A stretch of DNA of 64,000 nucleotides, from the IMG/VR virus record IMGVR_UViG_3300042886_000261, positions 32,001-96,000 of that record, one strand, 5' to 3'. The stretch is from a virus. Positions within the stretch are counted from its first letter, which is position 1. Each line of letters opens with the position of its first letter. Below are positions 15,109-57,876 of this stretch, in pieces. Made by a program: the position numbers and the translations under genes. Below the pieces are notes generated by a model. The model worked only from the letters and a program-made list of their open reading frames with translations. It ran no database searches and was not told the origin of the DNA.

Positions 15109-15109
15109 A

Positions 15110-15749: not shown

Positions 15750-16088
15750 ATGGAAGAAGTAGAAAAAACAATTAAAATAGAAAATGAGAAAATCAAAGTG
15801 GTTTTTACAAATGAGGTAAATTCTGATGAGCCAAGTTTAGAAGTAGAATTTATTTTTACAAGAAACAGTGAAGGTGAAAAAATAACTGAAGTGTCAATTG
15901 ATAAATCTATTTTTACTAGAGAGCAATCATTTATGAGTGAATTGTATATGAATACAGTTAATTCTTTATTAATGGTAAAAGAAATATTTGATAAAGGTGA
16001 AGTGTATGAAGGTGTACATACAATAACTAGAGAACAATACAAGCAGTATTTAATAAAAGTAAGAGGTGTTGATCCAACTAAATTATAA
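15750..16088 (+). CDS. Hypothetical protein
   Basis: Starts in repeat copy 2. Confidence 0.6.
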   Translation: MEEVEKTIKIENEKIKVVFTNEVNSDEPSLEVEFIFTRNSEGEKITEVSIDKSIFTREQSFMSELYMNTVNSLLMVKEIFDKGEVYEGVHTITREQYKQYLIKVRGVDPTKL

Positions 16089-26015: not shown

Positions 26016-29000
26016 TTATTTTAATAGTGTAGATTTGAATGATTTAACTGCTGCTTCTGGAGTAAAGTTATATCCAGAGAAACCCATTAGTTTAAGAAAG
26101 TATGCCCAAGATTTATTATCACCTTTATTCCATACACCTTCTTTTCTTTGATAATTTAATTTTTCAGGATCCCATGTTAGGAAAAATTGACTAACAAATT
26201 TTGTCATTCTTTCTACTGTACTAACCATAGCTGATGGAGATTTAACAGTACGGTAAGCATCTTGAGGAGATATATATGCTGCAGTCTCAGATTGCATTCT
26301 AGATAATTCATATAGCATAAAGTTATATGCATATCCTTTTTTCTCATCATCATCATCACCAAATGCATGCATTAATAACATTATAAAAGCAGTTGTTCCA
26401 AATATGATTACTGTTTCAGCCATTACTCTTTTAATTTGTGCTTTTTCAAAAGGAGTATATGTTGACCAGTTCTGCATCATGTTAAGTTTCATTTTAGATA
26501 AATCTTTTAACATTGTATTATAAAAAGTCATATAGTAACCTTCAGTTACAGCACCAAGTTCTTGATCTGCTTTAAGTCTTCCCCATCTTCTTTTATAACC
26601 AGGTAAAAGATGTTTTCTATACATGATAGCTAATCTACCTACTGAATATCTTTGTGCTGTACCTTTATCAAATTCATTATAAACCCCGTGTAATTTTTTA
26701 CTTATTGCATGTATTCTATCTTGTAAATCAAGTTTCTTTTTATTAGTAAAATCTGTATTTTTTTCAATTTCTTCAAGACCATATTTAGTATATGCTTCTA
26801 AAAGAGAAATTGTTTCTCCAGTATTAGTATCAGTAACTTTAGTTGCTTCCATTAATGCAAACATTGCAGATACTTGTATCTCATGCTCACCAAAATGCTG
26901 ATTAAAGAATAGTGTATCAGTTCTCATTAACTTAGCAAATACACTACCTGAAACATTTTTACCATACTGATCCTTATAGTTACCTTGTAATGCATCATAA
27001 TGATTTACAAGATTACCTACTAGTGATTCAGCTGTTGGTTTACCAAAATCAGAAAGAAATGAGGTTAAGTTTTTTGCATAATACAATTTACCTTTTCTTA
27101 AATCTTTTTTGCTAAAAAATTCAGATGAGTTAGCTTCAATAATTAATTGGATATTACCTTGTAAATTATTTGCCATACCTTTAAGTAAATCTGCAGCAAT
27201 ACTTGTTATAGCAGAATAACCTAATGCAAGATTTGTTAATTTACCCATAGAGTAATTCCCAAGTATCTCAGCATTTTGCATTTCATTATATAATTGCATA
27301 TTTATAAATGCATCAACATGTCTTTTAGAATTTGCTTCACCTTGTTTTTTAATATTAGATTTAATTCCAAGTTTATTTGCAAGAGAATCTAATACAGCAA
27401 CACCTTTAGAATTAGTTTCAGCAACTTCTCTATCTCCTATTATAGCTTTAAACATTGATGTTTCTGCTGAGATATTATTTACTGCTTCATATTTATTTGC
27501 CATTTGAGAGTAAAGTTCTACAGATCTTATTAAATCTAAACTTACTTCATCAGCATCCATATCTTGAGTGTAGTATACAGGTATAAACTTTGCACCTTCA
27601 TCAGCTAAATTTGAAAGATTAAAATCAGTTTCATCACCTCTTATAGATGTCACATCTTTAATTTTATCTTTTATAACACTTTTAATACTACTTCTTTCTA
27701 TACTACGTTTATGTATTGATGGTAATATATAACCTCTTTTTTGAGCATCAGGTACCTTTTCTTGAGCATCAAGATATAGATTTAATAAAAATGAATGATA
27801 TTCCCCTTTAGCATTTTTAGGTTTATCATTTTTATCATATAGTGCTTCCCATTTTTTATTAAGATACATATCAGCTGGCTCACTAAATTCTTTCATATAA
27901 ATCTTAGTACCATCTTTTTTAATCTGTAAAACAGATTTATGCCATTTATCATAATCCTCTTGATTCCAAATACCATTATTTACTAATTTATTTTTTTCAA
28001 GCAGAATCTTATCAATTTCCTCATCACTTTTCTTTTGTGCATTTTTAGCATACCAGTCTCTTAATATAGTAGATTTATTTGCTTCAAAATTAGAGTTTGC
28101 TATTATTTCTGCATCAGTTGGATTAGGTCCTAATTTAGTAGCACTATATAATTTATTTTGTGCTTCATTATATTTATTAATATCATATTTTTGTACAAAA
28201 GCCATTCTTTTAGTAATTGTTGGCTCACCATTATTATTTTTACCATGAGATATTAATTCTTCATATAATCCTTCATTAAATTTAGCTGGAGTATCTCTAC
28301 TTTCTGATTGACTATCTTTATATTTTGTAAATTGCTTACCTGCAAGTTTTGCTATATCTATATCTAATTGTCTTGCTCCTTCAAATTCTGTTTTAATAGC
28401 TTTTGCAAATAACCCTAGTGAAGCATCTTCATTAGATATTAATGGGCCAAACCAAAATTCTAAAGCACCTTCATCTCTAGATGCAAATTTTAACAATTCT
28501 TCCATTGACTCTTGAGTCTGTGTAAAAGATTGAAATTTAGCAATTCTTTCTGTTATAGCCTTAATTTTTTTATCATTAGGTTTTGCAGATGTTTTTTCAG
28601 CTTCTAATTTTTTTACTAATTCAACTAATTCTTTATTGATTGCATCATCTATACTTAGTGATTTATAATTAAGTAAAAATGAGGCCATTAAAGGTATACC
28701 TTGTTTTATATATTGTTCTTTAACTGCTTTTCTTATTGAAATTGCATCTGTCAACATTTCTCTTATAGTCTTACCTGTTTTTTCAGAGACTTCTTCTTCT
28801 CCTTCTTTTGCAGTAAAGAAACTATATATGTCAGCTTTAGAGATTTCATCAAGAATATTATAACTATTAGCAAAAGTATTTAAATTAGTAAGTTCAACAA
28901 TTCTATCTTTTTTAAACTTATCTGTACCATCATCTTTTTTATTAATGATAGCTTTCATTAATTTTTCAATTTCTAAAGCTTTATCATAGCTGTCTTTAAC

Positions 29001-29333
29001 AAACATGTTAATAGAATTAATACCTTCTAGATGTCTAAATTCATCAGTTAATTTTTTTTGTCTTTCTTCTTTTGCTGTTTGATTAATTAATTTTTGACCT
29101 TGAAGTATTTTTAATTGTTTTTCTAAATGCACCCAAATTTTATCTACCATAGTAGATATATCATCTTTTTTTACTTCAGAAGTATCAGCTAATTCAACAT
29201 CAGGTATATAATTTAAATCTTTATTTAAATCAAAACCCTGTCTAATCCACTCTTCTTCAGCTCTAGTATCATTACCATTTGCTTCATTAAGTATTTTTAT
29301 ATACTCCTTACTGGTTTTAATTGGGCAATACAT
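26016..29333 (-). CDS. Large virion/ejected protein (last of the RNAP-associated block), with C-terminal TM helix
   Basis: 1105 aa; hydrophobic VIIFGTTAFIMLLMHAF followed by DDDDE; position typical of crAss-like large cargo genes. Confidence 0.7.
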   Translation of the reverse strand: MYCPIKTSKEYIKILNEANGNDTRAEEEWIRQGFDLNKDLNYIPDVELADTSEVKKDDISTMVDKIWVHLEKQLKILQGQKLINQTAKEERQKKLTDEFRHLEGINSINMFVKDSYDKALEIEKLMKAIINKKDDGTDKFKKDRIVELTNLNTFANSYNILDEISKADIYSFFTAKEGEEEVSEKTGKTIREMLTDAISIRKAVKEQYIKQGIPLMASFLLNYKSLSIDDAINKELVELVKKLEAEKTSAKPNDKKIKAITERIAKFQSFTQTQESMEELLKFASRDEGALEFWFGPLISNEDASLGLFAKAIKTEFEGARQLDIDIAKLAGKQFTKYKDSQSESRDTPAKFNEGLYEELISHGKNNNGEPTITKRMAFVQKYDINKYNEAQNKLYSATKLGPNPTDAEIIANSNFEANKSTILRDWYAKNAQKKSDEEIDKILLEKNKLVNNGIWNQEDYDKWHKSVLQIKKDGTKIYMKEFSEPADMYLNKKWEALYDKNDKPKNAKGEYHSFLLNLYLDAQEKVPDAQKRGYILPSIHKRSIERSSIKSVIKDKIKDVTSIRGDETDFNLSNLADEGAKFIPVYYTQDMDADEVSLDLIRSVELYSQMANKYEAVNNISAETSMFKAIIGDREVAETNSKGVAVLDSLANKLGIKSNIKKQGEANSKRHVDAFINMQLYNEMQNAEILGNYSMGKLTNLALGYSAITSIAADLLKGMANNLQGNIQLIIEANSSEFFSKKDLRKGKLYYAKNLTSFLSDFGKPTAESLVGNLVNHYDALQGNYKDQYGKNVSGSVFAKLMRTDTLFFNQHFGEHEIQVSAMFALMEATKVTDTNTGETISLLEAYTKYGLEEIEKNTDFTNKKKLDLQDRIHAISKKLHGVYNEFDKGTAQRYSVGRLAIMYRKHLLPGYKRRWGRLKADQELGAVTEGYYMTFYNTMLKDLSKMKLNMMQNWSTYTPFEKAQIKRVMAETVIIFGTTAFIMLLMHAFGDDDDEKKGYAYNFMLYELSRMQSETAAYISPQDAYRTVKSPSAMVSTVERMTKFVSQFFLTWDPEKLNYQRKEGVWNKGDNKSWAYFLKLMGFSGYNFTPEAAVKSFKSTLLK

Positions 29334-29351
29334 ATTGTTTAGAATTTTTAA

Positions 29352-30137
29352 TTAACACAAATTTTTAAGTACTTTAACCATTATTTTGACTAACTGAGAT
29401 TCAGTAGTAATTACTTCTAATTCATCAAATATATCATTAATGTCAATACCTTTATAAGCAAGTTGTTCTTCTGTAAATAGATTTAACATAGTATCATTTA
29501 CAAAAGAATTATATGCTTTTTGATCATATGGCTTTAAAGATACTGGTTCTTTTACTAATTCCATGGTATCCAGATTAATATTTTTTAATAATATTATTTT
29601 ACCTGATAGATCTGTTATATCATATGTACCAGTAATATTATTTAAAATAGCTTTTGAGCCACCAATTATAACTGATCTTGGTTTTTTACCAGTTTTTTCA
29701 AGTTCTTTTTTATACTCAGTTTGAATTGGATATTCTTCCTCAACCTCTACAATATCTTCTACTTCTGGTATAAAGATATCTTCCTTGTTTTCTTGATCAA
29801 ATAAAGCTTCATCATCATTATAAAAACTAGTATCTTTTTCATCAAAATCTTTTTCATCAAAATCTCTTTCACCAGACATTATTGCTAGTTCTTCTTCTAT
29901 ATCTAATTGAGCATCATATTTCTCATCAACAACACTATCAAGAACTTTTTCAGAGATATTTATTATAACTCTATCTTTATCAATAGTACTTTTACTAGCT
30001 AAATTAGAATACTTATCATTAATATCTTTTATGATTCTTTTAGCATTAAAATCACTATGGGTAGTATTTCTATACCCACCTAATTTGTCATCAATTTCCT
30101 TATTTAAATCTTCTTTAATTTGTATTTTACAAGCCAT
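29352..30137 (-). CDS. Acidic 261-aa protein with Cys at both termini (putative linker cargo)
   Basis: MAC... ...KNLC*. Confidence 0.7.
   Translation of the reverse strand: MACKIQIKEDLNKEIDDKLGGYRNTTHSDFNAKRIIKDINDKYSNLASKSTIDKDRVIINISEKVLDSVVDEKYDAQLDIEEELAIMSGERDFDEKDFDEKDTSFYNDDEALFDQENKEDIFIPEVEDIVEVEEEYPIQTEYKKELEKTGKKPRSVIIGGSKAILNNITGTYDITDLSGKIILLKNINLDTMELVKEPVSLKPYDQKAYNSFVNDTMLNLFTEEQLAYKGIDINDIFDELEVITTESQLVKIMVKVLKNLC
29832..29865. repeat. 15-bp tandem repeat (DFDEK x2)
   Basis: ATCTTTTTCATCAAA x2. Confidence 0.8.
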
Positions 30138-30147
30138 GATATTATTA

Positions 30148-33100
30148 TTAACAAGATTTTTTATAAAGTGAAGCTGCTTCTAATATTCTTTTTTTAGTTA
30201 AAGGATCAGATACTGTTTCTTTAGCTAAGTTAGTTGTTCCTGAACCTAATATAGTATTATCTGAAAGTACATAGTAATTAAATTTAGTAGCTGGATCAGT
30301 AGACACTCTTAATGTACCATCTTGTAATTCTTTTCTAATATACACTTTATTTTTAATAGTTTGCTCAGTTAATTCTTTACCATTACCAAAATATATTTTA
30401 CCATCTGGTTTAATTGTAAAAGTATATTGATCTACTTTTATATTTCTTTCTTCTGGTTCAGATTTTTTAACTATAACTTCTCCAGTTTGTCCATCAGGAA
30501 CTTCTTCTTGTAGTTGTTTTACTATTGGTGCAACATTAGAAACATCAGATGCTTTATTAGTATAAACATAATCCATTTTAGATGTTCTACTTAAACCAAC
30601 ATATCTTAACATATTTCTTTCATTACCGTATGGTTTACCATTATAACTAATAATTTTATTATTAGCTGGGTTATCCATATTTTCATAATCTACAAATACA
30701 TTATCATATGTAGAACCTTGAGCTTTATGTGCTGTTACAGCATAACCATAATCAATATTTTTACTAAAAAATGCTTTAATATTTAATTTTTCATATTGTG
30801 ATGTACCATCTGCTTCTATTTTAAATAACTCAGGTCTTTCTTTTTTAAGAATTGACATTGTAGTAGGCTCATTTTCAAATAATAGTACATCATCTGGGAA
30901 TTGATATTTACTAAATAATGCATCTAATTCTGAACTAGCTTTAGCTCTAAATTTCCAAGCAATAGTATTATTATTAATAGCTTTTTTTACATCTAAAAAT
31001 TGCATTAATATATTTAAATTATTAGAATCACGTGGATTTATAATAAAAACTTTTTGAGGTTTTAATAATTGAGGACTGTGTGTTTTTATTAACTCAGTAT
31101 CACTTTCATTAAAAACTCTTTTAACTTCTATATTCCATCCAGAAAGTTTTCCTTTAATAATATGTGTTGTATTTAAAATACGCTCATTATATAATGAAAC
31201 TTCTTTTGATTCTTGATACTCATTACTTATTACAGTATAATCTTGTCCATTATTAATTATACTATCAGCACTTGATTGCTCATATCCCATAAGAGTTGAT
31301 CCTACACCATATGATTCATCAATATTCATACTTGAAAAAATTTGTTGATTATAAAGAGCAACAGATATATTTGAGTATGTAATTATTTTAGCATATGCTG
31401 GATCTTTTTTATACTCTTCTGAAGTAAAAGCATCAAACATTTTATTTTTAAATTCAGTTTTATCTTTTATAAAGTTAACACCTTCACCTTCACTATTTAT
31501 TTCTGTATCAAAATTAAAATTTTCATTTATGTCTAACATATTATTTCTAACACCAGTAATAATTTTTAAAACAGGGTTATCTTCTTTTTGTCTCATGATT
31601 TCTGTTAACTCATATCCTTCATTATCTTTAGTGTATGTTAATGCTGGACTTAATGAACTATTTCCTACAGGAGGTAACTGAGCAGGATCACCCATGAATA
31701 TTACTGTAGTGTTTTCATCTTGTGCTAAATCATAAATATCTTTATAATCAGAATTATCAATCATAGATGACTCATCTATTATTAAAATTCCATTACTTGG
31801 TACTGCATGATTAGGGCCTGGTTGAAAAACACCATTAATTTTACGTTTATTTAAAAGTTTAGCAGTTGTTATAGGTTTTTTAGTAACACCTCCTCTAATT
31901 AATTGTACTAATAAATTTATAGATGCTTTATGTGTAGGAGCTGCATATACTATTTCTTTCATACCTCTATGTTTAGTATTTACATAAAGTTGAATAAATT
32001 TAGCTATTGTACTTTTACCAGTACCCGCATAACCTTTTAAAACAAATTTTGTATTTTTATTATTAATGGCATCAATTGCTAATTGTAAAGCTGTTTTTTG
32101 TTGATCATTTAATCTTATAATTCCTGTTTTAATTTCAACACCATCACTGAATGTAAAAGTATTATTAAATGATACTGGTTCTCTTTTTTTAATTACAGTT
32201 TCTATTTTAACTACTGGAGCTTCACTTACTGTAACATTTTGTTGTTGAGTAGTAGCTTTAAATGTATTAGTATATACATCTCTAATAGCTTGTTTTGCAG
32301 CAGCTTCTACTTCAGGTCCTTTATACTGAGCTCTAGGTACCCATTTACCATCTTTTTGTACATTGTAATTTTCTATATCTCTAGAACCTACACCAGCAAA
32401 GTTTTTAGTAAGTGCTGGTGTGCTTATTTCTTTCCAACCATTATAATCCCACTCTTGTTTAGTTTTATCATAACCTTTATCAAGGTATTCTTTATCTTGA
32501 GTGTACCATTTTTGGGTATCTAAATCAAATACATATACTGGTTTACCCATTTTTATACCTAACTGGACAGCAGTATTTGTTCCACCCATAACTTCAGGTT
32601 TTGTAGTAGGTTTTATTTCAGCAACAGCAAATACAGCATCTGCATTAGCTACTTGATAATAATTTCTTACTTGTAAATTTCCTTGTAAAGTATCTGGGTA
32701 GCTTTCTCCAAGTAATCTCTCTACTTCAGTACGGGCTTTATCCATTTGTTCTTTAGTAAGAACTGTAGCTTTAACACCTGCATTTCTAAGTTTTTGAGAT
32801 AAATTTGGATTACCTGCATCTTTATAATGTCTTTGATCAGTAACACCAAACTCTCTACCTATTGTATCCCAGTATGTATCTCCACCATATGCTCCACCAG
32901 AATGATTAGTGTATTCTGATGCAGCAACACTAGTAGATGGTTGAGTAGTAGGTATATTATATTCATTAATGTCAGCATACCATTTACCAACTTTATAGTT
33001 TGCATAATTTACAGTATCAAATTGTTCATATAGTTTAATACCATCTCTGTTGTACTCATTGTACTGCTTTCTTTTTTTAACAAAGTTGCCTTTATTTGTA

Positions 33101-36100
33101 GGCTCCGAAAACTCAATATAAATACCATGATTACCAACCATTAATCTACTTATTGTAGGTTCAAGTTGTTTAAGCACATCTTTATTTTCTACAGTTAATG
33201 TTGAATTATCTGAACCTAATGTTATTTTTCCTAGTTGTGGGTAATCAGTGTTTAATTTTTGAATATAAACATTTCTAATTTGTTTATTAATTTCTTCTAT
33301 TTCAGAAACACTTTTTGTTTTTTCAAGATCTCTTATAAATTGTTGATAATAACCCGTTTCTACATATTTCCTAAATTTATTATACCATTCTGTATCAACA
33401 CTAGTAGATGGTTGATCAGTAGCTTTAAATATAATTGAATCATCAATGTAATTATTTACATTAGGGTCATTAGCAATCATCATAGCTGCAATTTTATCAA
33501 AAGTAGATGTATTCATCTTATTAGAAATAAATTCTCTAGATGCTGGTTCTACTATTTCAAAATATGTAGTATCAGGAAGAACATAACTAAGACCATATTT
33601 AGTATTACCTACTCCATTCTGTAAAATAGATATAAGTGGTAATATTTTAAACATGTCTGATATTTTTTTATTCTTAACTGGATCTTTTACTTTAATAACA
33701 TTTTCATCAGCAAGATCAATTAAGTTTTGATGATAACTATCAGCTAGTGCTCCTTTTACTACAGGTTTATTATTTAATGTTAATACAGATATCTGACCTT
33801 TAATTGTAAGTTTTTTAGTTTTAGCATCAAATACCTGATCTTTAATTGAGAAATTTTTAGAATTATATATATTTACCGGTACATCAGTAATTTGTTCTAG
33901 TACTGAATACAATTCTTTTAAGTGACTGTTTTCACTTATCATACTCATGAACCTAGTTACATATGCTTGGTGATTTAAAGTACTAAATAATTCTGGTACA
34001 CCTGGGAATGGTTCTTTAGTAGTTATTATCTCATTTAATCTGTTTTGATAAATATAATTTACCATTGCTTGTTTAAATGATGTGATAAAATTAGTTATAC
34101 CATCTGCTCCTTCACCAAATTTAAGTGGAATATTATTATTTTTAATATAATTAAGTAAATAAGTAGATACTCTTTTATCATCTGTTAAAGGAAATATAGG
34201 TTCTACTAAATCTTGAGTAATAACATTATCAAAGAAAGATCCTAATATAGACTCTTTTCTTAATTTTCTTACTAGGTCTTGATCTATTTTAGATGACTCA
34301 GATAAAATATCTAAACCAATTTTTCTTTGCATGATCTCCTGTATGGTTTTAGAAGTAGCTGTATCAGGATTTGACTGTCTTTTAAGATCAGCCATATCTT
34401 TTATTTGTTTTTCATACTCTAAATAATGTAAAAATATTGCAATAGCTTTTGGACTTGTAGTATCATTAGTAGTCATTGTACCTTTTAAATCCGCTGTTGT
34501 AAATTTATCCATACCTTCAGTTGCTGCAAGTACAACATCTTTATAATTTGGAGTAGACATTGGGTGATAATATTCATTAGTAGGATCAGCAATTATACTT
34601 TTAAATAATGGGCCAGTTTCAGAACTGTTAATTAATTCAATATCATTTATATTAACTTTATCAGCTTTTACATCTGCAATTAAGCTTTTTAATGTTGTAT
34701 CATATGATTTATCAATACCAGATAGTTTTACTGATACCTTAGCTTCTTTATTATAACCTTTTATTGCATTATTTAATCTTGTTCTATTTGCTTTATAAAT
34801 ACTTTCTGAGATATTAGTTTGTTTTAATACATTTAGAAGTGCATTATATTTTTTATTTTCATCAGATAATGTTTCTTTACCAGTAAGATTTGCATATGTA
34901 CTAGCATATAGTCTTTGTTGATTTGCATATTCTCTTACTAGTGGTTGAGATATAAAATAAACGGCATCTCTTTTTGGTACACCAGCTTTAAGTAAATTCA
35001 ATAACATTGGTATAAGTTCTTTATTAGCTTGAATAAAGAAGATCCATGCATCTTTCTCAACATCTACAGAACCATTCATTAAGTGTGAAAATAAATCTGC
35101 TATTTTATCTTGGCCATCTGCACTATTAATACCTGATAAAGAAATTCTTCCATCTTCAGTTTTATTATGATCAAGTAATAATCTCATTTCATAGATTATA
35201 CTTTTATCATCTTCATATTTTTTAGTCTTTGGATTTTTAACTGAGCCATAATATGTTTTTGGTAGAGCAGCACCTAATGCTGTATACAATGGATGTAATG
35301 CATTTTCAAGAGCAATAATACCTAATACATCTTTCCCTGTCATATTAGCTTCATGCTTATGTAAGTTATAACCTACTTCAAATACATTTGTTGGACTAAT
35401 AGTTTTATATCTTCCATATTCAGGTGAAGACTTTACTAAGTCATCTGCAATATCTTTCATTAAGTAAGTTTCATTTGGTCTTACTAATGTAGCATAATTA
35501 TCAGGTAGTTGTAATATACCTCTGATAGAATCAATTAATCTATTTTCAATTGCTTTTTTCTGTAATGCAATTAATTTAACTACTTGAGCTTTATCACCTT
35601 TAGATTCTGCATTTGCAATTAATTTTTTTAATGTTTCCTCAGATATATTAGATGTTACATAATTACCATTTTCATCTATATTAGGCATGAATGTAGTAAG
35701 CTTATCAACATCATAATCTGCTCCTGATTTAGCAACAATTTCTGATGGAGGAATAATAATAGAACCTGCAGCAGGATTTAAAAATTCATATACTTCCATA
35801 AATTCCATAGAGTTCATTCCTTGTACAGGGATCCTTACAGCTGATAAAGTAACAGATTTACGGTTATTATCTTTATTTAACCACTCATCATCTTTAATTA
35901 ATTCATTTAATCTTTTTCTTGTACCTATTTCTATACCATCAAGATCTTTAAGTTTTAAAAGATTTTTAAAATCTCCTTGTAATGCAATAGCAACTTTCAT
36001 TGCAGATGTATTACCATTCTCACCTGGATTATAGAAAGGTAAGTTATTAGTACCTAAGTATTTTTCTATTTCTGCAACTTGAGCTTTCTCAAATTTAAAA

Positions 36101-39100: not shown

Positions 39101-42100
39101 ATTTTACTAAAGTCAACTAATTCTGGAAAACCTAATGGTCCTTCTACTTCTTTACCATCAACTATTTTAAATAGACTTTTTAAAATATAAAGAGTCTCTT
39201 TTTCAGCTAATTGCATTAATGATTTTTTACCTACTTCTTTATTTGAAAATATTTCTGTTTCTTGAGCTTCTTCAGAAGCAGTTGTATCTCCTTCTATTTC
39301 AGTTTCTTCTTCATCTATTTCAATATACTTTTGCTTAATTAAATCAAATGTACTATGTTCTTTATGAAACTCTAATATATTATCCCAATTAGCAATTGCT
39401 GTTTCTAGTATTCTTATTTTATTATTTAATAAACTTCTTTTATTAAAATCTTCTTGAGCAGTAGCTTCTAGTTCTGTTTTAAATTTAACAAGTTTTTCAT
39501 TAAATCTTCTTTTAGTTCTAGCATAAGCTTCTATTTTATTTTTTTCAATTGTTAATATTTGAATAGTTCCAGTTTTATTTACTGTTACTAGATTTCCTGC
39601 TGAATCTTTAACATTATTAATGCTTTGAGCAAGTCTACCATCATATGTTTCATCAATAATTTTTGATAATACAGAATCAATTTGATTAGATACTTTAAGA
39701 CTATCTTGATAATTTAAAACAAGTTCTTTTGTTTCAGTATTAAATACACCTCTTGCTCTATTAAGCTTGTTAAACATATGGTTATCAACAAGTGGAGTAT
39801 ACTTGTTTAAAAGCTTAGGGTTTTTACTTGCAAAAAATAATTTTTCAAATAAATTTTCTTGAATAGATCTTTTACCAAATAATGCTTTAATAAAATTCCA
39901 TATTCTTCTGAATATAGTATTTCTTATAGGAGCATCACCTACAGCTTTAGGATCTTTAGCATACTCTCTAAAATCTTCAGCAATAATTTCTTCTACTTCT
40001 TCTGGAGAAAGTTCATAATTATTTAATCTTTTTCTAGTTTCAGCATATAACTTAGTCTTTTGTTTTTTAGTTAAGTATAATTGAGAAAATGCATGCCAAG
40101 CTTCATGGTATAAATCTACAGCAGAACTACCAGTAGCTGTATCTAATTGTATTGAAACATCTGATAATCTTTTACCTGCTATAATAAATCTTGCATAAAC
40201 ATCAGAGTTAACAATGTTAGCCATGTGTTCAAGCTTAATAAGTTTAGATAAAGGAGAATTATCCCACCACTCTTTAGCAGCAGTAATTTCTTCTTGAGTA
40301 ACATTATTAGGTAACTTAGAAGATCTATCTAATTCAAATGGTATATCACTTTCTTCATCAGGTTGATCAACTTTATCTGGATTAATAATTACTTCATCTT
40401 TTTTAGCTGCTTCTTGTTGTGGAGTACCAGGTGCTTTAGTAACTTTTGGTTTTAAAGTAAAATCCTTTTCACTTACTTGACCTATTTTTTTATCTCCTTT
40501 GTATATTGAAACTACATTATTTTTTGGCTCACCTTTGTTTGTAATTATATCATTAACTATAAAAGTTACAGGATCATTTGAATTTATGTCATTTGATGAT
40601 ATACCTGGTTCATATCTACCTTCCACTGTTACACCATCTACTTTCATTAAAAATGTAGCATTTGTTTTAGACATACCACTTAATATAGTACCAGATAAAT
40701 CTTTATTAACTTTTAATTTAAGAACAAGATCATCTTTAGCTGCTTTAATTTTATCTACAGTAGAAGATTTTACTTCTTCTTTAACTTTTTCTGTTTCAGC
40801 AATAAAATCTTTATCTATTCTAAATTGAAAGTATGGATTATTTACTGCATCACCTTTGTTAGTTTTTTTATCAGCAGGATTTAAAATTTTTAAGTCTAAT
40901 GATAAAAGAAAGTCCTTATAATCTACAGCATTAAATTTACCAGTATTACGGTTATAATTATAAAATGTTTTACTACCAGCAAGTATTTCTTTATTATAAC
41001 CCATAGTAGTTGCATATGTCAAAGTTTTTGCATTAATCCCTTGATTTTCATATGTAACTGTGCTTTCATTTAATAAATTATCAATTATAATTTGTTCAAC
41101 TTTTGGATCTGTAAAATCTTTTATTGGTATTAATAATTGTTTATTTTTTATTGGATCTGGTCTATATCCTCCAGTAAGTGTACCAGTAACATCATTATAA
41201 TTTACAAATAGTTTTCTTGTTGATTGAGCATTAATAGTATTATGAGTAAATTGTAAATAAAAATCATTTTTCTGTTTATTATTTAATTTAGGATTTACTA
41301 ATACAGCAGCAATTTGATTTATATATTCTTCAGGTAAATTAGTTCTATCAATTGTATAATTAACATCATTTATAAGTATTTCAGCAGTAAATGTTCTTGG
41401 ATTAATTTTAATATTTAATTTATTTTCTGGTGTTTTAGTTGCAGTAAGTAATTTTTTTAAAGTTGGATTTTCTTTATTAAAGAAAATATCAACAATACCA
41501 GCACTTATATCTGTTATATTTAATAACTTAGGTTCACCACCACGTACTTCATCTCTTAAGTCTTGTAATTCTTTAAAACTACTTTGTTGTTTATTATCAA
41601 CTAACTCAAGAAAGTCTTCATATGTTGTACCCTGATCAATTAACCATTTCTTATATGACTCCATACTCATTTCTTTTTTATGAGCATCTTTTTCAATTAA
41701 TTCTGCAGGTGAAATAATTCTATCTTCTAGACCATATATATCTGTAACTCTTAATTTATCAGAATTTTTTTCAGATCTTACATCTCTTAAAAATTGATAT
41801 ACAGGTTTACCACCATCTTCTTTAGATACTATAGAACCTTCTTCATCAAAATGTAATGTATTTCCATCCACATCTGATAAAACTAATACAACAATATCTT
41901 TAGCTTGAGTAACATTTGGATCTTCTATTTTATCTTTTACCATACTATTACTTCTAATAATATGTGCAACAGTAGTTGCATCTAATGTCTCTTCACCATT
42001 AAGACTTAATAACATTTTAGGTCTAAGTTTAATAACTTTACCTTGATAAATTAATTCAGGTCCACCTTCTTTTCTTACACCTTTTTCTTTAATGGTTCTT

Positions 42101-42664
42101 ATTGTTCTGTATATTCTTTCTTTATTAGGATCTTTTTTTTCTTTAGCTCCAGTATCTTTTTCATTAGGTGTTCTAGGAGAAAATTCTTGCATTGTAGAAG
42201 TTAAAGCATCATCTGCTTGCCATCTAAATGGATCATTAAGCATATTAAGAAAGTCATTACCTTGATCTGATAAAGGAGTATTTAATATACCTTTTTCTAT
42301 CTCCATTCTAAATTCTAAATCTTCTAGAGTAGCTTCAGGTCTAAAATGTTTTAATGTCTCAAGTAAACCATTTTCTGTATTTCTGAATTTAGTAATTAAT
42401 TCTTTATTAGCATTTAAATCAAAATCAAAATCACTTGTATCTATTTCATCTTGCTCAACTGCATTCTTCATTAAAGTAGGTACAATTTGTAAAAAAGTAG
42501 ATGCAGTATTAACATCTGTTTTTTTTTTGTATTTCTTCAAATAGATCAGTCATAAATTCTTCTGGAGCAAAAGCTTCATTAGACTCTAAAGAATTAAGCA
42601 TTTGTTTATATATTAACTTATATAAATTTTCAACTTGTGTTTGTGATAATGAACAGTTTACCAT
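30148..42664 (-). CDS. Giant virion RNA polymerase polyprotein (~4,170 aa): zincin metallopeptidase, crAss-type double-psi-barrel RNAP, unknown domain, SLOG domain and SF1 RecD/Dda-like helicase. Contains a +1 frameshift at the A10 run 42519-42528
   Basis: HEAWH (40093-40107); RIP.QG and GADYDVDK (35701-35724); SGGA.G.D, RN..., GGT, AGVGSR; GYAGTGKS, APTHKA, DESSM, GDPAQLPPV, HKAQGST. Leader MVNCSL... starts 4 nt after the upstream stop. Confidence 0.88.
32244..33430. repeat. Direct-repeat linkers bounding domain cassettes in the RNAP gene
   Basis: CAACACTAGTAGATGGTTGA at 32925-32944 and 33396-33415; GTTGAGTAGTAG at 32244 and 32940; AGTAGCTTTAAAT at 32251 and 33418. Confidence 0.85.
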
Positions 42665-42668
42665 AATA

Positions 42669-45600
42669 TTAACAATCTAAATCATTTAATAATTCTTTAT
42701 AAATTTCTGCTAATGTTTTATCATTAACATTTGCTTTTGCTTTATCTATATTTTTAGTATTAGAAGTAAAATCTTTTAATACTTTTAATGACTCAGCAAT
42801 TAAGTCTTTATCTTGTGTATCTAAACCTTTATTAGCTTTTTGAGCTTCTTTGGCTTTTTCAATTGCTAGTGTTGAAATGTGTTTATCTAACTCAAACAAA
42901 GATAATGTTTTTTCTTTATTATTATATGTAAATTCTACACCATTTTTATCAGATTTTACAACAGTAATTTCAGCACCTGTATCAGCAAAAACATCATCTT
43001 TAGTTTTACCAGGTACAGTATCAATAACAACTACTACATCACCTTCATTAAGTAATGTTTTAGATATAACAGTATTTGCTTGTTTAAATTCTTCTTTTTT
43101 AGCTTTTACTAATTCACCAATTATTTTACTATCTTCTAGAGTTATCTGTTTAGTAACTTTAACTGCATTTCTTAAATCAACAAGATAGTTTTCAAGTACA
43201 TTTGCTTCTTTAATAGAATTAAGTTTATCTGTTACTTCAGCAATTGTAATTCTTGGTTTTACAGTATCAGCTGTTTCAGCAAGTGTTTCTGAAGCAGTTA
43301 GTTTTGCAAAAATACTAGATACACCATTAAATGTTTTTTCAATTTCTGATTTAAGTGTTGGGTTAGTTTTTATTAATGATGAACTGGCTCCATCAAGATA
43401 ATCTTGATAACCTGATACATCAATATTACCTAATTTACTTTGCCAATCTGTTAGTATTACTGCAATTGCAGCATAATTCATAAAATCATAGATACCACTA
43501 TTTTCTTCATAAGAAACATCTAGATTTAAGCCACCAAGAGGAAGTAATGATAATAATTGTTGATTATTACCTTCTACTTTTGCAATTGGTTTATCATATT
43601 TATAATTTTTATTTAAACTATCAAGTATTTGTTTAATAATAGGATTATTATAACCATCTTTATAAGTATCAGCTCCAGCTTTTACAAGCCAGTCTCCACC
43701 ATTAAAAAAGAATGGATACCACTCACCTTTTGTTTTACTACTAGTTCCTTTTGAACTTCTATATATAGGTACTATTGCACCATCAATATTAAATACTATT
43801 GCATCTCTACCAGCAGACTGTTTAAAAAATGCACTGTTATTAATTTTTTCTACATGACCTTGTTCAGCAAGTGTTTCTAAAATTTTTGGTAACTCTACTC
43901 CTAATTCAAGTTGTGATGTTATTATATCAGCTACTCTTGCTCTTTTTTCTTTATCTGTAGTATCTATATCAACTTTAGTATCTGTAGTACTAACTTTTTT
44001 ATCAACAACAGGAGTTGTTTCTTTTTCAGTAACTCCTTTTCTTAAAGCTGCATACTCATCAGCAAATGCAAGTGCATTTAATGAAGCTCCTAGTTCATCT
44101 TGGTATTCTGTATAGTTAAGATTTTCATCAACTATTTTAGCTAAGTCTTCTTTACTTAATATTTTAATTATATCTTCAGGATATTCTAGTTCTACTAATT
44201 TTTCAACTAATTTAGGATTCATTGCTGTAGCAACTTTTATACCTGGTGCTTTTGTTTCAATTTTAATTTTAGCATCTATCTTAGATTTAGCTTTAGCAAA
44301 ACTAGGATTATTGATATCAAGTGGGAAGTACCAATTATCAAGACCTAATAATTCTGAATTAGTAGGTTCTTTTACAGATATTATCTGATATTTTTGTTCA
44401 TTAATAACTGTTTCAAGAGGCATGATGTTTATTTCAGCATCAAGTCCTGTCATCTTTTTTAATAATCTAGCATATATATATTGTTGTAAAGTATAATCTT
44501 CAGTTTTATTTAAACCTGATTTTGTTTTATCAACAAAGCCATTCCATTTTGTTTGTTTACCTGTTTTAAAATCTATTATATGTAATTTACCAGTTTGATC
44601 AATAAGTAGTAAATCCATTTCACCAGCAACATCACCTTGTTCATCAAATACTACAAGACCTTTTGCTAATGTATATAATTCACCTGAATCTATTTTTTGT
44701 TTAATAGGTTTTAAGAAACCAGTAGGTCCAAACATACTATCATATGCCTCTCTAGTAATTTCTGATTCTTTAAATTCTGTTTTTTCCTTAGAGAAAAAAT
44801 TTCTTAATTGCTCATCTATATAATCACCAGCTTTTCTTGTATACTCATATGCATTTTCAGATATATGATTTTGTATAGCTTCTAATAAATCTTTTTTAGT
44901 TTTAATATTACTAGTTTCTGGATTAGCAAGTATTTCATTTAAATAGTTTCTTAAATTATCTGAACTAGATGCAACACCATCAAGAGTATCTTTTGTATAT
45001 CCTGAATTTTCTAATGCTAATAATTTTTTATCAATATTAGTCATGAAAGCATCAATGCTCTCTTTAGTTAACTTAGTTGCACCAATAGTATCATTGAATA
45101 CTTCACCTATAGTGCTTTTGCCATTATATATATAGGCTTCAGATTTTAATTCTTGTATATAATTAGTTACTCTTTTTAATAAATCACCTTTTTTATCTTT
45201 TAGTAAATAACCACTTTGACCTATTTTTCTTATATTTTTTTGTTGAGCAGATAATTTTTCTTCTATAATTCTTATTGTCTCTTGAATACCTGGCTTAAAA
45301 CTTTTTATTAAACGTGTAGCTATTAATTTTTCAAAATCATTAATTACTTTTGAATAATAAGCTTTTTTAACAGGGTCCTCTTCATTATCTCTAAAGTTCT
45401 TAAACTGAGTACTTAAAGTTTTTATTTGCTCATTATCAAATTTAGAAGTGTTATTTGTTTTGTTATTATACTCAAAATCAAATTCTTCTATTTTACCAGA
45501 TTTTTGTTTTTCTACTTCTGCTACATTTTTATCATTATACTTATCTATAATGGTTTTAGCTTTAGGATCTTTTTCAATAAATGCTTTAAACATATCTGAT

Positions 45601-48600
45601 ATCTCTTCATCAGATACTTCATCTTCAACTGCAGATGCTAGTGCTTCAGATTTATTAAATTCATTCTGTAATTGACTATATAAGTCTTTAGGGAAATCTT
45701 TTAACTCAGTGTATATTGAGTATTGTTTTAATTCATTTTTATCTTTTTCAGCATCAAAAGTATCTATTGCTTCTTTCTTAAGTGCAGTATATTTTTTATT
45801 AAGTTCTTGAACATCTTCTTTACTTGGTTTAAGTTCAATTTTATATACTGTATATTCAGAAAATGTATTTTTAGTATCTTCAACTTTTATTATATTACCG
45901 TCTTTATTATTATTTCTTAAACCTTCAGGAGAACTATATAATGTTACAACTTTATCTGTTTTTGAAACTGTTACTTCTACATAGTCACCAACAGTTAATG
46001 CATCAATAATTTCTTTAATTTTTATATTATCTTTTTTAACTGTTTCACCTTTAGTTTTTACTTCAGTTTTTGGTAATAAATTAAATTCTTTATCATATGC
46101 AATTTTTAACTCATCAAGTTTTACTTGTAATTTTTCATCAAAATTTTCTTTTGAGGGAGCATTATTTTTTAATTCTTTATTTTGCTGTAACCTATCAAAT
46201 ATTATAGCATATTCAGCACTACCTGGTTTTATTACTTGCTTAGTAGTCTCATTAAGAAATTCTTTAGGTGGAATATTATTTTCCATATAATCTTGGAATG
46301 CATCAAGATCCATGAATATGTTTTTATCAGCTAATGCATTTAAAAATGCATTATTTTCTAATCCATTAATTTGCTTATTAACCATATCTACAAAATAGTC
46401 TTTTCTATTATTGTACATATTGCTCATCCAAATTTGAGATTTTTTAAGTTGATCCATAAAAGATTGTGGATCATGTAATAAATTAATTTGATTTACAAGT
46501 ATTTTTTGCTCATCACTTAACGTGTAATGATCTTTAAGCATACTAAAAGTTTTATCAATATCAGTATCAAATATATAAGTTGAATCAATACCATTTGTAT
46601 TTTTTAAATAATTTTTATATGCTATTTCTAATTCATTATTTATTGCATTTTTTTGAATCTCAAGTATTTGTTCTTTATCTTCATCTGTTAATTCATCAAC
46701 ACCTTGTTGTTGTTTTACTGCTTCAAATAATTCATTAGAAACTTTAGCTTTTCCTTCTGCATTATTATATAAAGCATGCATACTATAAGCAGATGAAAAA
46801 TCTTCTAATGCTTTTACTCTATTTTGTTTTTTTAATATTTCTGTTTTAGCTTTAGGATCAGTTGACTGACTAAATGCTTCTATTTCTGATTTAACTAATT
46901 GTATTTCATCATTTATTCTTGAAGGTTCAAGTACCATAAGCATGTCTGCTTGAGACATTTTTTTCATAGATGGGTTATTCAGAATCTTACCAGAAATGCT
47001 TGTCATTCTTTTAGCATTATCCATAAAACTATGATTTGCAAAAACATAATTTTTTATCCCCATCTGCCAAGCTTCACTTAGTATTGCAGCATCTTTATAT
47101 TCAGGTAAATCTTTATCATATTTACTTAAATCAATTGGATTAGGAAACCTATCATTTGCATAGTTATATGACTTTTTTACTTCATCTATGTTAGATAAAA
47201 TATTATCAATCTTATCTTGTTGCTTAGTTCCTGTACCTTTTTCAAATCCAAATGCTTCCTCAAATTCATCTACTGATAAATCTTTCATAGATCCAATATG
47301 ATCTTTAAAATATTCAATTGTATTAGTATCTAAAGCAGTATATATTTGAGTAACAAATGCATTACTTAATTCATCTTTTGCATCTTTAGTATCTGCTTCA
47401 TCTACATTAGATACTGTATTATTTTGAACACCATAGTTAAATAATCTAGAATTAAAAAATTCTTTAGGATCATTGTATAAATCATTTAGTCTTTTTGATA
47501 CAGTCTCACCATGTGTTTTTCTTAATTTTTTATATTCAGTAAATTTTTCTTTATTAAATATATGATTATAACCTGCATCTAAACCTCCTTTAGCTAAGTT
47601 TAACCCACCAGAAAATACACCCATTAATGCACCTGATGCAAATGTTTCAAATCCTTGTGATGAAAATTGATCTTTTAATCCATCAAACATTAATGAACTT
47701 TGTGCTTTATTATATAAGTGAGCTCCTAATTCTTTATTTTTATATGTAGTTTCATAATACTTTTCATTAGCTACTGTAATAACATCTTGTAAATTTTCTT
47801 GAACACCTTCCATTAAGTTGGCTTTTGTATATTTACCAAGTGTTTTAATAGTAGTTTTTACTGGAGCAGCTTTAAAACCTTTAAGTGAATTTTTAAATGA
47901 ATCAGCAACAAATGTAAATTCACCTTTAACTAATTTTTTACCAGTTACAGCAGTTTTTTCTAAAACAATTTTACCACCTTTCATGGATAATACATCATCT
48001 ATTTTAGAATTAATTACTCTTTTACCAATGCCTGATTTCATAAAATTAGGAAGGACAACTTTATTTGTTCCCAATATTAATGCAGTATTCCACATTAATG
48101 TATTCATTCCAGATTCTTTTGCTTTTTTAGTTAATATATATTGTTCATCATCATTTGGTGCTCTACCATTTTTTTCATAAAATGCATTATAAAGATCATC
48201 ATATACTTTATTATCATTCATACCACCTTCTAGACGGGCTTCTGATAATGACATATTAATATTCCTCATGTCTCTAAATAAACCACCAGCTGTTCTACTT
48301 GTACTTTGTGACAATCTTGCAAAACCTGTTAAGTTATCTGCATTTTTACCAATGCCTGCAAATGCATCAAATGTATTTTCAATTGGATTTAAAAATTTAC
48401 CTAATTTACTTGCATTAATATTTTCTGCTGCTTTCCACATATTTCTAGCACCAGTAATAGTATTTGCTTCATTAATTGTTTTATTTATAGCATTATAACC
48501 TTTTGCAGCCATTTCAGTTACATCACCAATTTTACCAATTTTTCTAGCATTATTAGCAGTAGCAGCAAAGAAAGAACCTCCTCCTGTAAGAGGAGCAAGT

Positions 48601-49328
48601 AAAGCACCAGCAGCTTCTTCAAGAATTGCTGAACCAAGGATACCTGCTGTATAACCAAAACTCATTGCAGTATTATTAAAGAATGCACCCATACCTTTTG
48701 ATGAATCATATCCTATAGCTGATGCTTGTTCATACATTCTTGCATCTTCAGTATCAGCACTAAAGTCACCTTGCATCATTTTAAGAAAACTTTTTGAATT
48801 AGATACAAATCCTCTTCCTGCTAATGGTAATAAACCATATGTTACACTTCTAACAAATTTATCTCCCCAAGTTGTATTAGCATTATATATTGCATCATTA
48901 TCTCTCATAGGAGAGAATCCAATTTCATCAAATTTTGCTTGACCAAAACCAACTGCATATCTTTTGTAAAAAGAGTTACCAGATGGACCAGCATTATATG
49001 CATATACTTTTGCATATTCATTTTTATCTTGATTTAATGCAACCTTCATTTTAAATCTTTCACCAATTGCTTTTGCCATTTCTTCTGGTGATACATTTTT
49101 ATTTGGATTTTTATGACTTGGTAAATTTGGGCTACGGCCAGTTATTGCATCTTGTATTGGATAACGTGGATTTGTACTAACTAAAGGTGGAGTAACAGGA
49201 AAATAATCTCTTATTTCTCTTGATTTTTCTCCTTCAAATGGAGATAAACTTCTTGAACTAATTCCAGGTGCTTGAATTTTACCAAATTCTGGTCCAAGTG
49301 GATCTAAAGGAGCAGTACTATTTTCCAT
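42669..49328 (-). CDS. Giant virion/ejected protein with hydrophobic N-terminal segments and an internal PD-(D/E)XK nuclease domain
   Basis: 2219 aa; GA-rich hydrophobic stretches; AGEMDLLLID...IIDFKTG...Y.LQ..IY. Confidence 0.78.
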   Translation of the reverse strand: MENSTAPLDPLGPEFGKIQAPGISSRSLSPFEGEKSREIRDYFPVTPPLVSTNPRYPIQDAITGRSPNLPSHKNPNKNVSPEEMAKAIGERFKMKVALNQDKNEYAKVYAYNAGPSGNSFYKRYAVGFGQAKFDEIGFSPMRDNDAIYNANTTWGDKFVRSVTYGLLPLAGRGFVSNSKSFLKMMQGDFSADTEDARMYEQASAIGYDSSKGMGAFFNNTAMSFGYTAGILGSAILEEAAGALLAPLTGGGSFFAATANNARKIGKIGDVTEMAAKGYNAINKTINEANTITGARNMWKAAENINASKLGKFLNPIENTFDAFAGIGKNADNLTGFARLSQSTSRTAGGLFRDMRNINMSLSEARLEGGMNDNKVYDDLYNAFYEKNGRAPNDDEQYILTKKAKESGMNTLMWNTALILGTNKVVLPNFMKSGIGKRVINSKIDDVLSMKGGKIVLEKTAVTGKKLVKGEFTFVADSFKNSLKGFKAAPVKTTIKTLGKYTKANLMEGVQENLQDVITVANEKYYETTYKNKELGAHLYNKAQSSLMFDGLKDQFSSQGFETFASGALMGVFSGGLNLAKGGLDAGYNHIFNKEKFTEYKKLRKTHGETVSKRLNDLYNDPKEFFNSRLFNYGVQNNTVSNVDEADTKDAKDELSNAFVTQIYTALDTNTIEYFKDHIGSMKDLSVDEFEEAFGFEKGTGTKQQDKIDNILSNIDEVKKSYNYANDRFPNPIDLSKYDKDLPEYKDAAILSEAWQMGIKNYVFANHSFMDNAKRMTSISGKILNNPSMKKMSQADMLMVLEPSRINDEIQLVKSEIEAFSQSTDPKAKTEILKKQNRVKALEDFSSAYSMHALYNNAEGKAKVSNELFEAVKQQQGVDELTDEDKEQILEIQKNAINNELEIAYKNYLKNTNGIDSTYIFDTDIDKTFSMLKDHYTLSDEQKILVNQINLLHDPQSFMDQLKKSQIWMSNMYNNRKDYFVDMVNKQINGLENNAFLNALADKNIFMDLDAFQDYMENNIPPKEFLNETTKQVIKPGSAEYAIIFDRLQQNKELKNNAPSKENFDEKLQVKLDELKIAYDKEFNLLPKTEVKTKGETVKKDNIKIKEIIDALTVGDYVEVTVSKTDKVVTLYSSPEGLRNNNKDGNIIKVEDTKNTFSEYTVYKIELKPSKEDVQELNKKYTALKKEAIDTFDAEKDKNELKQYSIYTELKDFPKDLYSQLQNEFNKSEALASAVEDEVSDEEISDMFKAFIEKDPKAKTIIDKYNDKNVAEVEKQKSGKIEEFDFEYNNKTNNTSKFDNEQIKTLSTQFKNFRDNEEDPVKKAYYSKVINDFEKLIATRLIKSFKPGIQETIRIIEEKLSAQQKNIRKIGQSGYLLKDKKGDLLKRVTNYIQELKSEAYIYNGKSTIGEVFNDTIGATKLTKESIDAFMTNIDKKLLALENSGYTKDTLDGVASSSDNLRNYLNEILANPETSNIKTKKDLLEAIQNHISENAYEYTRKAGDYIDEQLRNFFSKEKTEFKESEITREAYDSMFGPTGFLKPIKQKIDSGELYTLAKGLVVFDEQGDVAGEMDLLLIDQTGKLHIIDFKTGKQTKWNGFVDKTKSGLNKTEDYTLQQYIYARLLKKMTGLDAEINIMPLETVINEQKYQIISVKEPTNSELLGLDNWYFPLDINNPSFAKAKSKIDAKIKIETKAPGIKVATAMNPKLVEKLVELEYPEDIIKILSKEDLAKIVDENLNYTEYQDELGASLNALAFADEYAALRKGVTEKETTPVVDKKVSTTDTKVDIDTTDKEKRARVADIITSQLELGVELPKILETLAEQGHVEKINNSAFFKQSAGRDAIVFNIDGAIVPIYRSSKGTSSKTKGEWYPFFFNGGDWLVKAGADTYKDGYNNPIIKQILDSLNKNYKYDKPIAKVEGNNQQLLSLLPLGGLNLDVSYEENSGIYDFMNYAAIAVILTDWQSKLGNIDVSGYQDYLDGASSSLIKTNPTLKSEIEKTFNGVSSIFAKLTASETLAETADTVKPRITIAEVTDKLNSIKEANVLENYLVDLRNAVKVTKQITLEDSKIIGELVKAKKEEFKQANTVISKTLLNEGDVVVVIDTVPGKTKDDVFADTGAEITVVKSDKNGVEFTYNNKEKTLSLFELDKHISTLAIEKAKEAQKANKGLDTQDKDLIAESLKVLKDFTSNTKNIDKAKANVNDKTLAEIYKELLNDLDC

Positions 49329-52300: not shown

Positions 52301-52447
52301 TTGACCATAAACATTATTTAATGCTTTATAGTTTGTATCATACTGATTTTGCTTTGTCTGCAATGCTGTTGCATAAAAGTTTAAATCAGGTTGAAAGGGT
52401 TGAAATTGAGGAATAAAATCAGTGACACCTTGTAAATATGTTGACAT
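49328..52447 (-). CDS. Virion cargo/ejection protein
   Basis: 1039 aa; N-terminal QPFQPDLNFY..AL..KQ.QYD helical pattern; coupled to the next gene. Confidence 0.65.
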   Translation of the reverse strand: MSTYLQGVTDFIPQFQPFQPDLNFYATALQTKQNQYDTNYKALNNVYGQYFYADLTHGDNLKKKDELIKAIDFNLKRVSGLDLSLDQNVDQATQVFKPFYQDKHLMKDMAWTKNINSEKAYGAGLKNSRDEKQRSQYWDDGLKFLQYKTEEFKEASLEETMNMGNVSYTPYVNVIEKAQKIAKDQGYKVETIRPTADGKWMVKTTNGENILEPLNRLLEAQLGSDPAVIDVYKTQAYINRKDYAYSNAARFNGDKNAAEMSYLTESYKVLKTEADARKVELEKQNNVTDTKIDAVKKAVSTGNATPNTASYLERLQEAKNITTTLETNNNTTVSALSTKSSTATTSTGFENPYGDVESLRYNIDNAMASKLMQKDLGEAADLYARTHREVDYEANIYAVKEQEHGYRMQEVASANASRERSAQMIKQSTLDAAAYKEMYDSKAYTPDLQQTVVGPDGKTYANPNYMRPILNPDADAITTRQKDRGASSDEINVMEQLGQNKLNSIDENVTPYLKQMLSSMRDLKGQLSTQDIENVLGKGMTIDKFNEQLQAAPQDFVRKTLGANKLKKITDSFQQLVKSNYNKGNSAFDIVGKNMLNYNINLNNYYTQDQNLQKWKTSVNQDVRNYVLNADPSSVDVVDYLFDKQGNPVSKAVFESTVLANKKVNKEDLANYENWKKVEAARKRGEDISNTMTDVVSNAPGFGSFGFGILGNVAKVAGALNSVMPQEGRYSIYDPKINPGTARVLKLYDYDKLHALVMKGYSSDKIRIPPPGIPALGRFGTPGLTTIGEHGVNVYADAPNTVGAFSWRGFQKDLNRLNFDKDIQVRFNGPVKTGANNVKEGKALIEEAFHETSMRGGTLKGFRLAAQPLALNTVGKGAMIFYPDAEWLKKHTYTETAEGKKGPGIISQDMANNALQNGISFISDEKNWSNHMYQQTKVTPIEANVEFNSSYNQPYVIDDPNDDSNGNKFTVEKDKILGGYTYKYDYKYYNPKIKDYEVLTVSDHGITSGQQLEKASMDAFGAWEEARDLSNQIFNNANR

Positions 52448-52464
52448 AATATTAGTATTAATCT

Positions 52465-52512
52465 ATATTGTAAATATATTAAAATTTTATAAGTTTACTA
52501 AACCTATAAAGT
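52465..52512 (-). promoter_or_regulatory. Candidate late promoter, motif copy 1
   Basis: Minus strand ACTTT..GTTTAGTAAACT..AAAATT..TATATTTA, shared with the 57830-57876 intergenic region. Confidence 0.5.
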
Positions 52513-55479: not shown

Positions 55480-55488
55480 AATATAATA

Positions 55489-57816: not shown

Positions 57817-57829
57817 ATAACATGTAATA

Positions 57830-57876
57830 TATATTAAATATAATAATTTTTAGTTTACTAGATAAACATTAAAAGT
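57830..57876 (-). promoter_or_regulatory. Candidate late promoter, motif copy 2
   Basis: Minus strand ACTTT..GTTTATCTAGTAAACT.AAAATT..TATATTTA. Confidence 0.5.

Follow-up and report, generated by a model that had tools for sequence, protein, structure and literature searches.

Why would four consecutive genes for large phage proteins encode cysteine (Cys) only where the end of one product meets the start of the next? The question is raised by a window of 64,000 nucleotides (nt), positions 32,001 to 96,000 of the IMG/VR virus record IMGVR_UViG_3300042886_000261 (106,750 bp, G+C 26-32%). The four genes occupy 26016-49328 on the minus strand and encode a 2219-residue protein (p2219), a giant RNA polymerase (RNAP), a 261-residue protein (p261) and a 1105-residue protein (p1105). 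By homology, they make up the virion RNAP cargo module of a crAss-like phage, in which a g067-like protein and the RNAP are followed by a small adapter with two domains and by a g065-like protein. No phages of the human gut are more abundant than Crassvirales. It is an open question how these phages pack a cargo of roughly 5 MDa, including the RNAP that starts the infection, in fixed amounts and eject it through the tail (PMC10172136). The analysis presented here confirmed that the pairing of terminal Cys across cargo gene junctions is a real and general sequence rule among crAss-like relatives. On analogy with one solved cargo junction, we hold with moderate confidence that the paired residues join consecutive cargo proteins by inter-chain disulfides.

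Six cysteines at three junctions

All coordinates in this section refer to features of the minus strand. The first link, p2219 (42669..49328), ends with NDLDC, its last residue encoded by TGT at 42672..42674, and has no N-terminal or internal Cys. The RNAP gene (30148..42664) encodes about 4170 residues when a frame shift in an A-run is read through, and its product begins with MVNC, with Cys as residue 4 (42653..42655), and ends with KKSC (TGT, 30151..30153). Protein p261 (29352..30137) runs from MAC, with an invariant C3 (30129..30131), to KNLC, with an invariant C261 (TGT, 29355..29357). The last link, p1105 (26016..29333), begins with MYC, where C3 (TGC, 29325..29327) and the following P4 are invariant, and contains no other Cys, at the C-terminus or elsewhere. 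Translation of the four products gave six Cys in ~7,750 residues, none of them internal. All six are found at the three internal junctions, as the last residue of the upstream protein and as residue 3 or 4 of the downstream one, and both outer ends of the chain are Cys-free. The initial annotation had located these six codons and stated that the four products contain no other Cys, and both statements proved to be correct.

The probability that six uniformly placed Cys all fall inside five-residue terminal windows is ~2e-14. In the seven minus-strand giant genes, TGY occurs in frame 5 times, whereas the two remaining frames hold 98 and 674 occurrences, and ~226 in-frame occurrences would be expected from base composition. 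The Cys content is 1.36% in the plus-strand genes of the window versus 0.10% in the minus-strand block. These numbers bear on the possibility that the pattern is a by-product of chance, base composition or a junction nucleotide signal for translational coupling (TGT TAA ... ATG NNN TGY). Such a signal is favored by the three C-terminal Cys of the window, which are all written TGT TAA, and by the overlap of stop and start codons in many relatives. However, the in-frame deficit, the persistence of the rule at RNAP identities down to ~24% and over intergenic distances from -10 to +31 nt, and its validity for genes on opposite strands (see below) leave this explanation with practically negligible probability.

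The N-terminus of the RNAP is not encoded in one open reading frame (ORF). The ORF listed under translation table 11 covers 30148-42540, and the frame beginning with MVNC starts at 42664, four bases past the p2219 stop, in a frame other than that of the giant ORF. This frame is broken 47 codons after the start at a run of ten A (42519..42528, codons 45-48), and past this run the giant ORF is read in the +1 frame. The run is one base longer than in three homologues that remain in frame (L015, L032 and L017), and an uninterrupted homologue of 3305 residues (L004/L015) starts with MVNCSLSP. In view of these homologues, MVNC is the true start of the giant RNAP of the window. The start given in the initial annotation is thus backed by relatives, but in the window the RNAP gene is not one open frame. 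The extra A is due to a sequencing error in the homopolymer or to genuine slippage.

The giant protein carries the sequence GADYDVDK (35701..35724, residues 2273-2280; consensus of relatives GADFDVDK), which corresponds to the DxDxD metal-binding motif of two-barrel RNAPs, and G-x-D-x-D-x-D-K is invariant in an alignment with five homologues. A profile of six homologues matched one PDB chain, 6VR4_A, the phi14:2 virion RNAP gp66 (E=9.4e-24), and tblastn of the RNAP revealed 32 Crassvirales records with ~24% identity. In blastp searches, p2219 matched phi14:2 g067 (E=1e-10) and p1105 matched phi14:2 g065 (E=7e-40). Megablast of the block against GenBank phages produced no match, and PHROGs and Pfam profiles found nothing for p2219, p261, p1105 or an upstream 1039-residue protein, apart from a weak sub-threshold PD-(D/E)XK match. 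These sequence comparisons confirm the giant protein as a crAss-like virion RNAP, in line with the identity and affiliation proposed initially. Cargo-module proteins were detected by mass spectrometry in the virions of phi14:2, according to its record notes, and of PhiCrAss001 (PMC10172136). By homology with these two phages, the window proteins would also be packaged in the virion and delivered into the host.

The terminal-cysteine rule in relatives

In the first survey, 80 loci with the RNAP profile were collected and 78 distinct ones were kept (RNAP identity 29-84%). Junctions between adjacent large ORFs were scored for Cys within eight residues of each end. Both ends had Cys at 131 junctions and neither at 70, and the three discordant junctions were artefacts of the threshold or of start calling (a wrong first-ATG call in two cases and a Cys at -10 in the third), with a Fisher p of 3e-51 for the pairing of ends, computed without phylogenetic correction. 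The second survey covered 64 distinct gut-type loci, where 54 of 55 adjacent giant pairs had both Cys. Thus, the co-occurrence of C- and N-terminal Cys at junctions, which had been predicted from the window, was found in both surveys, with a pair at nearly every true boundary between proteins.

Among the proteins of at least 1000 residues in the first survey, 255 of 281 Cys (in 542,822 residues) were terminal and 26 internal. The N-terminal Cys was residue 3-7 and the C-terminal Cys was followed by 0-9 residues, and both were kept even in lineages with up to 21 internal Cys. Cys was the only invariant residue around the termini, with His present in 4 of 266 flanking contexts. The 41 complete chains contained three proteins (34 chains), four proteins (3) or two proteins (4), and a chain of n proteins invariably had 2 x (n-1) terminal Cys, with two as the lowest number. 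The N-terminus of the first protein and the C-terminus of the last one were free of Cys with three apparent exceptions (L040, L073 and L083), whose outer-end Cys appear to fall at contig-start or chaining breaks: the RNAP match of L040 starts 567 bases into the locus, and a 396-residue piece in L083 directly precedes a MAC... protein. According to gene coordinates, L017 (21910-21916) and several other loci have a 7-nt overlap between the end of the upstream gene and the beginning of the M..CP.. gene, which would place the two Cys codons of these loci within about a dozen bases of each other.

The cultured crassviruses follow the same rule. The only Cys of phi14:2 g067 is its last residue (...TIC), the g066 RNAP has Cys only at positions 3 and 2179 of 2180 (MAC..., ...QECK), and g065 only at position 3 (MSC...), with no other Cys in the 5,398 residues of these three cargo proteins. 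The locus L133, taken as PhiCrAss001, encodes an RNAP with Cys 5 and 2404 of 2412 and one internal Cys, a 1349-residue protein with Cys5 only, and an opposite-strand giant ending with RCNS. DAC15, cr118_1 and cr108_1 also conform. The phi14:2 g067-g066-g065 and PhiCrAss001 gp47/gp50/gp49 genes represent homologous blocks with the same terminal-Cys pattern. These modules have three links, whereas p261 as an extra adapter makes a fourth in the window. The window RNAP also has about twice the length of theirs, contains DprA-like and Dda-like helicase domains, and reads DYDVD at the motif. The terminal-Cys rule is not mentioned in the two key papers on the phi14:2 RNAP and PhiCrAss001, and among the papers searched we found none linking Crassvirales cargo to terminal cysteines or disulfides.

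Rearranged cargo genes provide natural experiments. In DAC15- and crAss001-like genomes, the g067-like gene is located on the opposite strand and is non-adjacent. In the second survey, the product of this gene was Cys-ended in 49 of 51 loci, in most of them with this residue as the lone Cys. Since these opposite-strand, non-adjacent genes keep the terminal Cys, an explanation at the nucleotide level or through coupling is removed.

Fusions of cargo genes lack the Cys pair at the joint. This was observed for g067+RNAP fusions in L055, L152, L173, cr118_1 and cr108_1 and for an RNAP+g065 fusion in L172, using full-length comparisons, as the fused joints are too diverged for direct BLAST alignment. 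The L152 fusion has one Cys in 4,461 residues, which is the last residue, and two-protein chains composed of a fused g067+RNAP and a g065-like protein keep exactly the pair of the remaining junction. A FastTree phylogeny built from 148 RNAP cores requires no fewer than three changes to account for the fusions. The loss of Cys at fused genes had been anticipated by the initial annotation and was seen in all fusions compared. The opposite event was found in L072, where the g067-like protein is split in two and a new Cys pair is present at the new break.

These events also discriminate between possible partners of the terminal Cys. The residues might bond elsewhere, forming homodimers via the same terminus or attaching cargo ends to a structural virion protein, and both the presence of several cargo copies per virion and the many structural disulfides in the PhiCrAss001 virion would accommodate this. 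However, bonding elsewhere leaves unexplained the Cys-free outer ends (3 apparent exceptions among 41 complete chains), as well as the gain of a pair at the L072 split and its loss at fusions, which makes it decidedly unlikely. Alternatively, the RNAP could close on itself, N-terminal to C-terminal Cys, with the first protein bonded to the last. This arrangement would account for the even Cys count in three-protein systems and for the Cys at both RNAP ends, but it requires re-pairing after each fusion or split, and two-protein chains retain just the pair of their remaining junction. A linear chain is the simpler account of the four-protein chains and of the L072 split, and co-folding (see below) weakly favors contact between the p261 C-domain and the p1105 N-terminus. 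We consider self-closure to be very unlikely.

Some RNAP genes have frame breaks without Cys, with gaps of 215-1322 nt. Both of the two Cys-less breaks tested are group I introns (RF00028), one in L012 (cr108_1) at 15763-16081 (80 bits) and the other in the gut contig L161 at 14942-15176 (47 bits, just below the gathering score). Because the tested Cys-less breaks are introns, the Cys pair marks only true protein ends. It can serve as an annotation marker that tells the real ends of proteins in these giant genes from breaks caused by an intron or a frameshift. The rule also says which protein end meets which, providing a wiring diagram that can be read from sequence. Similar gaps of 215-1322 nt are present in the RNAP genes of L107, L155, L164, L168 and L171.

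Disulfides as the candidate link

In the favored model, the Cys facing each other across a junction would form inter-chain disulfides, and the separately translated proteins would become one head-to-tail chain of ~0.88 MDa, a pseudo-polyprotein. Pairwise side-chain bonds across the junctions fit the survey data because the Cys number equals 2 x (n-1) and Cys alone is invariant, with hardly any His nearby, and these data do not fit a metal site with several ligands, cyclisation or anchoring to other parts. With the Cys at the very ends, the joint would stay thin, and with no Cys in the interior, cross-links could form neither branches nor loops. More speculatively, the link may serve 1:1 co-packaging and the ordered tail passage of partly unfolded cargo, and may be reduced in the host cytoplasm. 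In its full form, this model would have crassviruses deliver the RNAP module as one redox-cleavable thread, with C-to-N disulfides in gene order, sequential tail passage, and release and activation by cytoplasmic reduction. We propose this extension only tentatively and regard it as possible, if rather doubtful; if true, such a thread would explain the free splitting or fusing of cargo genes in evolution.

The structural precedent comes from the cyanopodophage A4, whose cryo-electron microscopy structure at 3.4-3.6 Å shows gp27 reaching into gp26 with its C-terminal helix, which is fixed by a disulfide between Cys1715 and Cys5 (PNAS 2025, PMC12002296). In the Anabaena phage A-4L genome (KF356198), gp27 (1717 residues) has Cys1715 as its only Cys, and the next product, gp26 (1114 residues), has only Cys5. 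As predicted for the window proteins, gp27 and gp26 are large internal ejection proteins; they are encoded by consecutive genes and carry the same signature of lone terminal Cys as in the window, and p261 resembles gp27 in ending with a helix, which in p261 carries the Cys. A4, a member of Saffermanviridae, has one link and no RNAP, whereas crassviruses have a chain of two to three links. The A4 paper treats the disulfide as a local stabilizer and does not generalize it (PMC12002296). This bond is the only precedent for a covalent cargo junction that we found. Thus, the initial claim that such linkage is undescribed holds for Crassvirales, for which no report was found, but not for phages as a whole, as a bond from a C-terminal Cys to Cys5 is known from A4 (PMC12002296). 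If the disulfide reading is true, it would represent a general route by which podophage-like viruses build a polyprotein whose joints are not peptide bonds, with A4 as the single case seen to date.

Co-folding of cognate termini, which had been suggested as a check, produced a score of 0.54 for p1105 residues 1-320 with p261 residues 130-261, compared to 0.00 for the best control. In a benchmark, 58 of 80 solved complexes and 2 of 110 mismatched pairs came up to the 0.54 mark, but only 7 of the 80 solved complexes, along with both mismatches, did so without exceeding 0.60. The runs agreed in at least 67% of contacts, with a pLDDT (predicted local distance difference test) of at least 79 for the partner. 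The model weakly suggests contact between the p261 C-domain and the p1105 N-terminus: the cognate pair stands out from its controls, but its score falls in the range shared with the two mismatches.

The same pairing logic would apply if the two Cys held the protein ends by jointly binding a metal ion or by some contact other than a disulfide, such as a two-coordinate Cu(I)-type bridge or a thiol needed for a non-covalent interface. Neither a reducing cytoplasm nor an anoxic gut would stand in the way of this kind of contact, and no phage oxidase was found. On the other hand, each terminus offers a single Cys and no other conserved ligand, His being present in 4 of the 266 contexts. Three or four ligands are the norm for Zn and Fe sites, and the identical signature in the one solved analogue, A4, is a disulfide. 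We therefore consider a metal or other non-disulfide contact unlikely.

Two further candidates were rejected. A Zn(Cys)4 knot is incompatible with a Cys number that follows 2 x (n-1) and can be as low as 2. Intein-type ligation or trans-splicing, where the nucleophile would be the first residue of the downstream extein, does not agree with an N-terminal Cys at residue 3-7 after Met and a C-terminal Cys that is last or up to nine residues before the end. Pfam and PHROG scans of the block proteins detected no intein family.

Several points weigh against a disulfide chain. The cytoplasm in which assembly takes place is reducing, and the gut habitat of such phages lacks oxygen. Searches of the phage genome for Erv1/ALR, thioredoxin and glutaredoxin families gave no match, with the reservation that the Erv search matched nothing in the controls either. 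We infer the disulfide between crassvirus cargo proteins with one structural precedent, and A4 is an analogy: its bond staples a folded interface and is silent on a role in threading. Pairwise BLASTP showed no similarity of A4 gp26 and gp27 to the window proteins (best E=0.064 and 0.99). The PhiCrAss001 virion has disulfides in the tail and portal vertex, but its atlas left the cargo unresolved and reports no cargo disulfide (PMC10172136). The phi14:2 RNAP preprint makes no mention of cysteine, and the survey counts across relatives are not phylogenetically independent.

Suppression of Cys is shared with Schitoviridae, whose giant ejected virion proteins (N4 gp50, DEV gp71-gp73), among them an RNAP, are depleted in this residue as in the window. 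The N4-type virion RNAP, a T7-like single-subunit enzyme, is one polypeptide of another RNAP class without terminal Cys, whereas the window adds Cys kept at the breaks. No N4-type polymerase match was obtained for the window RNAP, and its sole RNAP match was to the two-barrel gp66 type. The N4-like ejection proteins are near Cys-free, and the earlier idea that they are so because they pass through the periplasm has been repeated (PMC11445570).

Adapter, polymerase domains and neighboring genes

With p261, the window is a four-link example of the chain with a small two-headed adapter protein. An AlphaFold2 model of p261 (pLDDT 71.5) predicted two domains, 1-88 and 135-261, with a disordered acidic linker between them, and placed both Cys on helices at the two ends. 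Foldseek found no significant match of this model in the PDB. Both close and 45%-identity relatives of p261 all start with MAC..., end with C and have no internal Cys. The C-domain occurs either free or as the C-terminus of the RNAP, and it is always Cys-ended and followed by the M..CP.. protein. The p261 clusters P0004 and P0006 are labelled muramoyltetrapeptide carboxypeptidase LdcA by the Joint Genome Institute, without Pfam or PHROG support.

Pfam and PHROGs searches of the giant RNAP recognized only a DprA-like domain and a Dda/RecD-like helicase, both in its last quarter. The DprA-like domain and the superfamily 1 helicase are inserted before the RNAP C-terminus at residues 3206-4001 (30538-32925), and the 3305-residue homologue L004/L015 is ~830 residues shorter than the window RNAP. 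The helicase part is shared with L055 at 64% identity, whereas the RNAP core is only ~24% identical. An invariant HEAWH sequence (HExxH, zincin-type) is located in the N-terminal third of the RNAP, at residues 812-816 (40093-40107). In phi14:2, the zincin-like domain is said to sit in gp65, and this domain seems to have moved within the cargo block. The locus L023 (7509-25079) encodes a 6381-residue protein with Cys only at residue 5 and as the last residue. This protein has a second, diverged RNAP core, as residues 1827-2543 of the window RNAP also match its residues 5262-5898.

The weak PD-(D/E)XK nuclease match in p2219 covers residues 1480-1627 (44448-44891) and scored 20.6 bits against a Pfam cut-off of 22, and the region is kept in the 1245-residue piece of the split homologue L072. 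Upstream of the chain, at 49328-62061, the minus strand encodes three more giant proteins of 1039, 775 and 1394 residues, which have no Cys, and a 988-residue protein has Cys at 114 and 124. These proteins are outside the Cys chain. In most environmental loci, a Cys-free protein of ~1000 residues starting with MATY... or MSTY... lies just upstream of the chain, and its counterpart in the window, the 1039-residue protein, starts with MSTYLQG.

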